From an uncultured Chloroflexia bacterium (GTDB taxonomy: Bacteria; Chloroflexota; Anaerolineae; JAAYZQ01): a DNA stretch of 64,000 nt. This document shows positions 54,214 to 56,605 of the stretch, piece after piece. The DNA lies in contig CAVOXA010000022.1 of assembly GCA_963700285.1 (NCBI GenBank), positions 224,001 to 288,000 on the forward strand, in the 5' to 3' direction. The position numbers and the translations under genes were made by a program. The notes below the pieces were generated by a model, which worked only from the letters and a program-made list of their open reading frames with translations, ran no database searches and was not told the origin of the DNA. Numbering within the stretch: position 1 is the first letter of the stretch; every line of letters begins with the position of its first letter.

Positions 54214-54243
54214 TTGCTTAAAATGCAGATTTCGTGGTATAAT
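54214..54243 (+). promoter_or_regulatory. Sigma70 promoter upstream of the TGA-containing small ORFs
   Basis: TTGCTT-18 bp-TATAAT with extended TG. Confidence 0.65.
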
Positions 54244-54355
54244 CGCACGACTCCGCCCAAGAGATCGTCGATCTGGGCCGGATCAGTGGCGAGTCTGGGG
54301 CGCGTCCGGCGCAACGCCCGCAACGCTCGCCAAAACACAAGGAGGTGTAGGAACA

Positions 54356-54541
54356 ATGTGGTGGTGGATCGGTGCTTTTGTGGCCTGGCTCATTGGCTTG
54401 GTCTGAATCCTGTACCTGATGGCGGACGTGTTCCGCGGAAGAACAAAGGGGTTCAGCTTCAGCCTGCTGCCAGGGTATCTGTTTCACGGCCTGTTTGCGG
54501 TTCTAGCCCTGTGGTTCGTATTCAAGGCCATCGGGGCCTAG
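54356..54541 (+). CDS. Small 2-TM protein with in-frame TGA at codon 17 (candidate selenoprotein A)
   Basis: SD AAGGAGGT; MWWWIGAFVAWLIGLV*ILYLMADVFRGRTKGFSFSLLPGYLFHGLFAVLALWFVFKAIGA; hairpin GCGGA-CGTGT-TCCGC downstream of the TGA. Confidence 0.6.
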
Positions 54542-54566
54542 GGTTCCAGGAGAAAGGGGGATAGCC

Positions 54567-54791
54567 ATGAGGATCGTTGCCGGAATCGTCGGGACCCTGC
54601 TGCTGCTTGCGGGTCTGATATGACTTGTCTACATCTTGAGAGGCGTGTTCTCTCAGGCTGAAGGATTCACCGCGTTGGGCGCCTTGTGGGGGCCTCTGGC
54701 CTTTCATGCCGTCACCACGGGGCTGGGCACCGCGCTGCTGGCCAGGGCGGTGGCCCCCCAGGACGCTATCCAAGCTCAGCCGGCTGAGTGA
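54567..54791 (+). CDS. Paralogous small 2-TM protein with in-frame TGA at codon 19 (candidate selenoprotein B; apparent indel in a TC run near 54653)
   Basis: SD AAAGGGGG; MRIVAGIVGTLLLLAGLI*LVYILRGVFS/RLKGFTALGALWGPLAFHAVTTGLGTALLARAVAP; hairpin TGAGAGG-CGTGT-TCTCTCA. Confidence 0.5.
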
Positions 54792-54974: not shown

Positions 54975-55616
54975 ATGAAAGAAGTCGTTTTCGGCGCAAA
55001 AGTTGAATGTACAGACGGAGAGGCCGGTGAGGTTGTGAATCTCCTCGTCGATCCTGTGAGCCGGGATGTGGCGCACTATGTCGTCAAGGAAAAGGCGCGT
55101 CCCCATACGGAGCGCCTGGTTCCTGCCTATCTGGAGATTGAGAGCACCCCGGAACTCATCAAGCTGAAATGCACGCTGGCAGAGCTCGCCGACATGACTG
55201 CGTACCGTTTCAATGTGGCTTACCAAACCAACCCATCAGCTTCCATGGGAGCGGATCCCTACGGGGGGGGTCTCGCGAACCGGACCTATGTCATTGAGAG
55301 GACTGTGGTGCCCCAGGGCGAGCAGGCTTTTTCCATGCATTCCAAGGTGGAGGCAAAGGATGGTACTGTGGGCCGGGTGGATGGGGTCCTGACCGATGAG
55401 GAGACGGGCGAGATCACGCACATGCTCATGCGCAAGGGGCACGCCTGGGGCGAGAAAGAGGTCGTAATTCCGGTGTCGCTCATCGACCACTCGCATGAGG
55501 GTACGGTCTATCTCAAGGTCAACAAGGATGAGGCGTTGGACCAACTCACCCTGTCGGCCGCGTGGGGGCACGGGCCCTCCGAGGACGAGCTGGAGGACCT
55601 GCTGGACGGCGAGTAA
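54975..55616 (+). CDS. Tandem PRC-barrel domain protein
   Basis: GAKVECTDGEAG.V..L.VDP....V.H.VV and KVEAKDG.VG.VD.V..D...G.ITH..MRKGH.WG.KEV.IP. Confidence 0.85.
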   Translation: MKEVVFGAKVECTDGEAGEVVNLLVDPVSRDVAHYVVKEKARPHTERLVPAYLEIESTPELIKLKCTLAELADMTAYRFNVAYQTNPSASMGADPYGGGLANRTYVIERTVVPQGEQAFSMHSKVEAKDGTVGRVDGVLTDEETGEITHMLMRKGHAWGEKEVVIPVSLIDHSHEGTVYLKVNKDEALDQLTLSAAWGHGPSEDELEDLLDGE

Positions 55617-55617
55617 G

Positions 55618-56556
55618 CGTTCGTAGTCGGCGATTCAGCGCCGTAAGTAAGTGCGATGAATCGCGCACTACGAACGGGGCGATACCAGGCGAGCAACCGT
55701 TCGTAGTCGGCGATTCATCGCCGTAAGAAAGCGCGATGAATCGCGCACTACGAACGGTACTGTGGCGGGCGCGAAACTGTTCGTAGTCGGCGATTCATCG
55801 CCGTAAGAAGGCGCGATGAATCGCGCACTACGAACGGGGCGATACCAGGTGAGCAACCGTTCGTAGTCGGCGATTCATCGCCGTAAGAAAGCGCGATGAA
55901 TCGCGCACTACGAACGGGGCGATACCAGGTGAGCAACTGTTCGTAGTCGGCGATTCATCGCCGCAAGAAAGCGCGATGAATCGCGCACTACGAACGGTAC
56001 TGTGCCGGGCGCGAAACTGTTCGTAGTCGGCGATTCATCGCCGTAAGAAAGCGCGATGAATCGCGCACTACGAACGGGGCGATACCAGGTGAGCAACCGT
56101 TCGTAGTCGGCGATTCATCGCCGTAAGAAAGCGCGATGAATCGCGCACTACGAACGGGGCGATATCAGGTGAGCAACTGTTCGTAGTCGGCGATTCATCG
56201 CCGTAGGAAAGCGCGATGAATCGCGCACTACGAACGGGGCGATACCTGGCGAGCAACCGTTCGTAGTCGGCGATTCATCGCCGCAAGAAAGCGCGATGAA
56301 TCGCGCACTACGAACGGGGTGATACCAGGTGAGCAACCGTTCGTAGTCGGCGATTCATCGACGTAGGAAAGCGCGATGAATCGCGCACTACGAACGGGGC
56401 GATACCAGGTGAGCAACCGTTCGTAGTCGGCGATTCATCGCCGTAGGAAAGCGCGATGAATCGCGCACTACGAACGGTACTGTGGCGGGCGCGAAACTGT
56501 TCGTAGTCGGCGATTCATCGCCGCAAGAAAGCGCGATGAATCGCGCACTACGAACG
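55618..56556. repeat. Tandem array of 12 x 80-bp inverted REP doublets (REPIN/BIME-like)
   Basis: Unit GTTCGTAGTCGGCGATTCATCGCCG-taagaaa-GCGCGATGAATCGCGCACTACGAAC starts every 80 bp from 55618 to 56498; only two linker classes. Confidence 0.95.
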
Positions 56557-56605
56557 GGGGCGTCGCGTGCCCGAAGGCGAGCAACCGGCGAAGGAGAAAC
56601 GTGCC

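Follow-up and report, generated by a model that had tools for sequence, protein, structure and literature searches.

Two tandem genes for small membrane proteins with conserved in-frame UGA codons define a candidate selenoprotein family with a predicted antiparallel arrangement

The window analysed here is a 64,000-nucleotide stretch of the genome of an uncultured Anaerolineae bacterium (contig CAVOXA010000022.1, positions 224,001 to 288,000). Within it, two adjacent short open reading frames, ORF A and ORF B, lie on the + strand, and each carries one in-frame UGA followed by a hairpin. The features of the locus, in window coordinates, are as follows.

54235-54243, + strand: extended -10 promoter-like motif TGnTATAAT, TGGTATAAT, a match by sequence only, 113 nt 5' of ORF A
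54340-54346, + strand: Shine-Dalgarno (SD) sequence of ORF A, AGGAGGT, read from the sequence
54356-54541, + strand: ORF A, 61 aa by translation, with the UGA as likely Sec17 and a TAG stop
54404-54406, + strand: in-frame UGA of ORF A (codon 17, likely Sec17), conserved in homologs
54422-54436, + strand: SECIS-type hairpin of ORF A, 5-bp stem, loop CGUGU at 54427-54431
54485-54487, + strand: His44 of ORF A, kept family-wide
54554-54560, + strand: SD-like purine run of ORF B, AAGGGGG, read from the sequence
54567-54791, + strand: ORF B, 74 aa, with the UGA as likely Sec19, no frameshift and an ordinary UGA stop
54621-54623, + strand: in-frame UGA of ORF B (codon 19, likely Sec19), conserved in homologs
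54635-54657, + strand: SECIS-type hairpin of ORF B, 9-bp stem, loop CGUGU at 54644-54648
54705-54707, + strand: His47 of ORF B, kept family-wide

The initial annotation had placed TGA codons at 54404 and 54621, a TGnTATAAT motif and strong SD sequences ahead of the genes, and had predicted products of 61 and 74 aa upon readthrough with a conserved histidine in the second helix; all of these are present, the motif as sequence, although it is absent from the output of a consensus promoter scan. SD-like motifs also precede 75 of the 76 UGA-containing family genes, a count for which start codons were chosen in favour of an SD. The proposal that ORF B requires an indel correction had to be abandoned. 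ORF B runs in a single frame throughout and reads ...RGVFSQAEGF..., its SQAEGF segment is identical in orthologs, and an independent RNA-library contig spanning 54644-54794 crosses the suspected positions 54650-54656 with no differing letter and no gap. Both TGAs are also found in contigs from other sequencing runs and therefore are not assembly errors. Three RNA-library contigs cover parts of the A and B genes at a depth of ~2, which is no proof of transcription, and no sequencing run holding half of the stretch was found. The flanking genes, a DUF6790 gene on the opposite strand and a PRC-barrel gene downstream, are unrelated to the pair.

The UGA site is conserved among relatives. Among 61 related genomes, ORF A was matched in 10 (its own included; 39-98% identical, one TGA in each) and ORF B in nine, of which eight have the TGA and one is a fragment. 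A family profile found matches in 12 of 401 genomes of the class and 6 of 301 of the phylum, and it also matched 27 of 190 pattern hits from metagenomes. When the site codon was read directly from DNA in 92 distinct genes, it was TGA in 76, TGC or TGT (Cys) in 15, ATC (Ile) in one and TGG in none; this set required the His and a start codon, so that its His is invariant by construction, and many of its members are close kin. Protein libraries yielded 183 aligned rows, 115 of which do not reach the Sec column, as expected when genes are called after the stop. The remaining 68 rows have 52 Cys, 8 Trp, 2 Leu, 2 Gly and one each of Ile, Val, Thr and Ser. The residue at this site in homologs, which had been named as a check, is thus Cys in most database rows, and the TGG codon for Trp is missing from the genes read as DNA. 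Cys-form loci come from Vulcanimicrobiota, KSB1, Planctomycetota, Bacteroidales and Desulfobacteraceae, and named Cys-form proteins come also from Symbiobacteriaceae and Margulisbacteria. P0023, the post-UGA half of an ortholog from the same family as the host, is filed at NCBI under Anaerolineae, which makes the host a likely member of that class. One of the eight Trp rows, P0004, is the B protein of locus L058, whose DNA has a TGA both internally and terminally, each called as W; this Trp is a code-4 gene-calling artefact. Codes 4 or 25 were apparently used on short metagenome contigs for P0003, P0004, P0065, P0111 and P0124, as shown for P0004 only, and such calls appear to turn Sec codons into Trp or Gly.

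Among close pairs, pN/pS was 0.14 (A) and 0.27 (B) upstream of the UGA and 0.21 downstream. These values are low on both sides of the UGA, which indicates that both halves code for protein and bears out the earlier observation that homology continues past this codon. The same data weigh on the possibility that the genes are pseudogenes, or that each UGA closes a short leader peptide ahead of a separate protein. Gene callers do list many 40-65 aa fragments that start past the UGA, and decayed copies exist in G015, where only half of B is left, and in G472, where A is broken and B has Tyr in place of His. We nevertheless give this explanation almost no credence: the same codon is retained in both paralogs and in 76 genes, with proteins 39-98% identical, purifying selection acts on both sides of it, and the Cys homologs are uninterrupted.

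A hairpin follows each UGA. The loop CGUGU begins at the 21st base after the UGA in both genes (spacing 20), and the identical loops on different stems that had been reported, GCGGA/UCCGC in A and UGAGAGG/UCUCUCA in B, are as described, the latter extendable to 9 pairs. These hairpins, with stems of 5 and 9 bp, fit the geometry of the bacterial SECIS model, which in the available text of PMC13188914 comprises a 3-9 nt loop, a 4-16 bp stem, a G in the first two loop positions and a location 16-37 nt after the UGA. Isolated stem-loop energies are -6.0 (A) and -9.8 (B) kcal/mol, and 56-nt folds give -16.8 and -13.9 kcal/mol; these are not bSECISearch scores, to which the bSECIS energy criterion of <= -7.5 kcal/mol applies. 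In single-sequence folding neither hairpin is more stable than shuffled sequences (z = -1.16 for A and -0.20 for B), and against synonymous recoding the single hairpins gave p = 0.085 (A) and 0.04 (B), so the case rests on conservation. A 7-pair stem aligned in 19 genes has 85.7% paired cells, with 20 cells changed on both sides, and a covariation of 0.545 compared with 0.284 for shuffled and <= 0.262 for slid alignments, the shuffle test being inflated by relatedness. This supports the compensatory stem change that had been suggested from the two genes.

The hairpin also distinguishes UGA genes from other sequences. With a G required in the first two loop positions and a threshold of our own choice of <= -4 kcal/mol, a hairpin 18-23 nt 3' of the codon was found in 74 of 76 UGA genes and in 1 of 16 non-UGA genes, and the same criterion was satisfied at 112 of 1555 ordinary terminal TGAs of the host genome. 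Without the energy threshold, the geometry is present in all 76 UGA genes. Mean hairpin energy is -7.7 in the UGA genes against -1.4 in synonymous recodings of the same peptides, and synonymous divergence in the hairpin codons is reduced 3-5-fold (pS from ~0.5 to 0.10 in A and from 0.42-0.46 to 0.14 in B). The caution that conserved Val-Phe codons might account for the loop identity is not upheld, since the recoding comparison and the synonymous suppression together show that the loop is not merely a by-product of these codons. The commonest loops in the family are CGUGU (38 genes) and GGUCU (13 genes); in the comparison with known SECIS elements of the genome that had been suggested, GGUCU proved to be the loop of the host FdhA SECIS as well.

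The machinery for Sec insertion, which had been listed for confirmation, is present: selA (E = 8.5e-174), selB, selD and a tRNA-Sec were all found in the host genome. The selD gene carries an in-frame UGA of its own. Both selB (G000:C10:2126954-2128870) and selD (G000:C9:56688-57628) are frameshifted in the host assembly, and the selA copies in G015 and G124 are likewise frameshifted; these probably reflect indel errors in long-read assembly and not genuine breaks. Other UGA-containing host genes encode FdhA, MvhD, peroxiredoxin and HdrA. They lie at G000:C1:67790, C1:1379341, C22:53849, C10:1161302, C5:106317, C14:726816, C7:68239 and C10:849625 and comprise two FdhA-like, one MvhD, three peroxiredoxin-like and two HdrA genes, with loops GGUCU, GGUC, CGUG and others. 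In a further HdrA match, at C15:230688, the TGA lacks a hairpin and may simply terminate the gene. The presence of selA in all 20 other UGA carriers tested adds little, given that 347 of 401 class genomes also have it (two unpublished genomes being part of this count).

A changed genetic code or a suppressor tRNA could also allow readthrough, with UGA decoded as Trp, Gly or Cys. The eight Trp and two Gly database rows speak for such a reading, which we consider very improbable. The Trp of P0004 was written over a TGA, the single tRNA-Sec is the sole host tRNA with a UCA anticodon, and UGA is the terminal stop of 1555 long ORFs on three host contigs. It also closes 36 of the 76 UGA family genes, so that recoding is context-dependent. 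Taken with the conserved codon and hairpin, the comparisons indicate that both UGAs are very likely read as selenocysteine.

A-type and B-type genes occur together in 43 of 49 loci, separated by gaps of -4 to 157 nt. Six loci are unpaired, of which two are halves of one genome's pair and three are effects of duplicate removal or contig edges; G018 has A alone, with no B within its locus. All eight true Cys loci are paired, with B ahead of A and the gene ends overlapping or almost touching; 3 of 11 GTDB pattern hits were dismissed as chance matches. The A+B pair is present across at least six phyla. Pfam scanning of 126 neighbouring ORFs revealed no flanking family shared beyond close kin, and A+B is a stand-alone two-gene unit. 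The ccmC/ccmE genes at L075 and a reductive dehalogenase at L089 each occur once among the neighbourhoods. At L075:155-4102, ccmC, ccmE and a ccmF-like gene are arranged divergently to the pair. At L089:3-1163 (G479) the reductive dehalogenase (TIGR02486) is codirectional with the pair and stops 340 nt 5' of it; no small anchor gene was seen in the gap, and the two other genomes of the genus have different genes upstream.

Rows of the A and B types are 22-33% identical. In a poorly resolved tree of 84 rows and 65 columns, Sec A genes grouped with Cys A genes and Sec B genes with Cys B genes, and a constraint that placed all Sec genes together was rejected (p-AU = 0.011). Because the Sec genes group with Cys genes by type, the A/B duplication likely predates the Sec/Cys switch, which would then have occurred in both paralogs, in either direction. 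The Sec pairs of L017 and L034 (G032, G078) are arranged in B-A order like the Cys lineages, have a spacing of 23 and the loop GGUC, and lie downstream of a PnrA-like ABC binding protein; their B falls near the A-types in the tree and may represent a separate duplication. Fused or longer forms were absent from 7996 candidates of 243-2000 aa, from 3824 of 31-242 aa and from a 1.84-billion library, whose two long hits were dropped as low-complexity noise; this is weak evidence of absence. Library searches returned no balanced singleton form of the family. The 58 pattern matches among viral contigs included no relative. In the phylum of G413, that genome was the only carrier among 301 genomes, a match in G711 being noise.

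An AlphaFold2 model of A consists of a two-helix hairpin (helices 2-26 and 35-59, pLDDT 95.7), and a model of a Cys-containing B ortholog has helices 2-29 and 37-60 (pLDDT 87.7), from which the helix bounds of B were taken. The distribution of positive charge differs between the types. Among UGA genes, Lys and Arg are concentrated in the loop in 37 of 38 A-type proteins and at the termini in all 38 B-type proteins, and the lone A-type exception is a short-tailed B misfiled by the sorting rule. The Cys genes show the same bias, with A loop-heavy in six of eight (two level) and B termini-heavy in seven of eight. A is therefore predicted to place its loop inside and its termini outside, and B its termini inside and its loop outside. 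In the available text of PMC3755343, paired Fluc genes (La1/La2) with a converse Lys/Arg bias form obligate antiparallel heterodimers. From this shared opposite bias we infer an antiparallel A-B bundle, and by that analogy A and B probably form a heterodimer.

The His is invariant in all 74 aligned rows not selected for His. Sec17 and His44 of A are predicted to face each other, as judged from the helix bounds of the model. Conserved Gly, Ala and Ser residues lie on the same helical faces as Sec and His, which suggests that Sec and His likely point into the bundle. Fold searches returned only generic hairpins (best Foldseek E = 4.9; best VIA Z = 8.3 among many ties), a PDB sequence search found no family (best E = 0.48), and an ESM Atlas query made with a Cys homolog retrieved unnamed clusters only, all below 0.9.

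In the arrangement we propose, SelB and tRNA-Sec would insert Sec at both UGAs through the downstream hairpins, and A and B would enter the membrane in opposite orientations and pair as a four-helix bundle. The Sec-His pair of A would lie roughly one turn to one side of the membrane centre and that of B roughly one turn to the other, and facing the bundle interior they would make up either a single Sec2His2 site or a stack of two Sec-His sites. Sec or Cys together with His forms a metal-ligand set. Because of this ligand set, because antiparallel pairs are usually carriers or channels, and because membrane selenoproteins are mostly metal or metalloid transporters (as catalogued in the available text of PMC13188914), the site may be a buried soft-metal site that binds an ion and likely passes it across the membrane, a reading that we regard as plausible rather than probable. 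The ligand would be a thiophilic metal ion, by analogy only and with Cu, Ni, Co, Zn and Hg not distinguished, and the pair would serve as a stand-alone minimal carrier or trap. Against this reading, neighbours vary by locus with no conserved neighbour or family match, and four helices are few for a transporter. In addition, six database rows have Leu, Ile, Val, Thr or Ser at the site and the B copy of L075 (KSB1) has Ile instead of Cys, so the full Cys2His2 set is not always kept. The hgcA profile scored above its cut-off in 8 of the 27 carriers and in 1 of the 10 non-carriers (p = 0.39), which gave no link to mercury handling.

Sec usually stands in for a redox-active Cys. The two Sec residues might accordingly make and break a diselenide near the membrane centre, as in a CcdA-like transmembrane relay that carries reducing equivalents across the membrane with the His residues as acid-base helpers. 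The two Cys of CcdA bridge ~12 Å, near the offset that we estimate for A and B (PMC7329351, available text), and one Cys locus, L075, adjoins ccmC/ccmE. This relay is the main alternative, though an unlikely one. No thioredoxin-like partner is encoded among the 126 neighbouring ORFs, the B protein of L075 lacks the Cys and could form no inter-subunit disulfide there, there is no Pfam DsbD_TM match, and the His is left without explanation. DsbD/CcdA domains also occur in 20 of 27 carriers, with no pattern of replacement; the apparent association (20 of 27 against 3 of 10, p = 0.02) was rejected as kinship, the figures within the host family being 3 of 9 and 3 of 10.

The placement of Sec opposite His within a single hairpin would also suit a catalytic dyad of an intramembrane enzyme, such as an acyl carrier or a reductase of lipid hydroperoxides or quinones. 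L075 fits this reading, since a single intact dyad would be enough, but the retention of two oppositely oriented partners would be unexplained and no substrate-related neighbours are present, and we consider the dyad rather improbable. A minimal b-type cytochrome, in which the two His, or His together with Sec, would ligate haem inside the four-helix bundle, is improbable as well. The His is better conserved than Cys/Sec, the Gly/Ala-rich helix faces could give haem room, and 2 of 74 rows weakly match TIGR02970 cytochrome b556 (best E = 0.003). However, hemB and hemC were found in only three of five carriers tested; G479 (one contig, 99% complete) and G551 (99% complete) have neither of these biosynthesis genes although their pair is intact, import aside. 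Of the readings considered, the metal site remains our preferred one. In its broader form, in which an obligate antiparallel heterodimer of 60-75 aa hairpins would use a Sec2His2 core to move a metal ion or electrons and both paralogs would have switched between Cys and Sec in parallel, each with a SECIS of its own embedded in the coding sequence, the pair would be the smallest Sec-based membrane carrier, with an architecture unmatched among catalogued selenoproteins, a proposal that falls narrowly short of probable.

The decoding appears to be ordinary bacterial Sec insertion, and the protein family and its architecture appear new relative to the catalogue. In-frame UGA, a coding-region hairpin, Cys homologs and sel genes are common to A/B and the SelB/bSECIS selenoproteins described in the available text of PMC13188914. 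Unlike those proteins, A and B have no UxxC, CxxU or CU motif but a lone Sec in a transmembrane helix, partnered by His, and both genes of the operon are Sec paralogs. The family is absent from the 119 families of Table 1 in the available text of that catalogue, a few entries of which (CDD or PANTHER identifiers only, or no representative) were compared by name and motif. No consistent Pfam or NCBIfam match at E = 0.05 was obtained for 74 members, and no description was found in the literature searched, which did not extend to subscription journals. The literature covered included passages of the deep-Sep (PMC12013277) and Dehalogenimonas genome (PMC4918011) papers, and BSepDB (PMC13326102) gave no match in the text covered, which probably excludes its Table S2. 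The earlier statement that the family is unlike known selenoproteins therefore holds for the catalogue and profile libraries searched.

Architectural parallels exist among other membrane proteins. Fluc/SMR gene pairs are, like A/B, tandem homologs ~25% identical with a converse Lys/Arg bias (PMC3755343, available text). A and B differ from them in having Sec/Cys and His in the core and no CrcB or SMR profile match. Fluc and SMR subunits have four helices, compared with two in A and B. CcdA/DsbD resembles A/B in that two thiol-type residues from inverted halves meet in the membrane, but CcdA is one six-helix chain with two Cys and A/B are two two-helix chains with an invariant His (PMC7329351, available text); no PF02683 match was found in the family. 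Membrane-buried Sec/Cys is shared with transport selenoproteins (PF02411 mercuric transport, SaoP, YeeE/YedE and SO_0444 Cu/Zn efflux), as far as these are described in the available texts. In SaoP permease a Sec pair meets at the gate (bioRxiv 10.1101/2022.07.06.499078, available text), and in YeeE, a pseudo-symmetric fold of two-helix units, substrate is relayed along Cys residues (PMC7449682, available text). A and B are much smaller than these transport selenoproteins, have no sequence match to them, and have no ATPase, binding protein or conserved operon. As regards MerT/MerF, A and B have no PF02411-type match and a single Cys/Sec in the first helix. MerT and MerF carry a Cys pair in that helix.

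The selenoprotein family added here, like the Cys family found in several phyla, has escaped annotation; database entries are mostly post-UGA fragments or unnamed hypothetical proteins. The pairing of A and B across phyla and their opposite predicted membrane orientation go beyond the initial annotation. A Sec in a lipid-embedded helix, facing a His within an oppositely oriented pair, would place selenium chemistry in a new setting. With four helices and 135 residues, the system is small enough for synthesis, reconstitution and structure solution. The likely parallel Sec/Cys switch in both paralogs would offer a clean case for the origin of SECIS elements under coding constraint. Even streamlined genomes of 1.8-1.9 Mb retain the pair, in one case immediately downstream of a reductive dehalogenase gene. 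This retention suggests that anaerobes truly profit from the pair and points to likely cultivable hosts.

The host itself has an hgcA match above the NCBIfam cut-off (G000:C22:135163-136098) and is likely a mercury methylator. Downstream of the pair, at 55608-56559 of the window, an 80-bp palindromic unit is repeated in tandem (11.9 copies, 90% alike) and resembles a REP-type repeat. A similar 80-bp palindromic repeat is also found upstream of the pair in L031.
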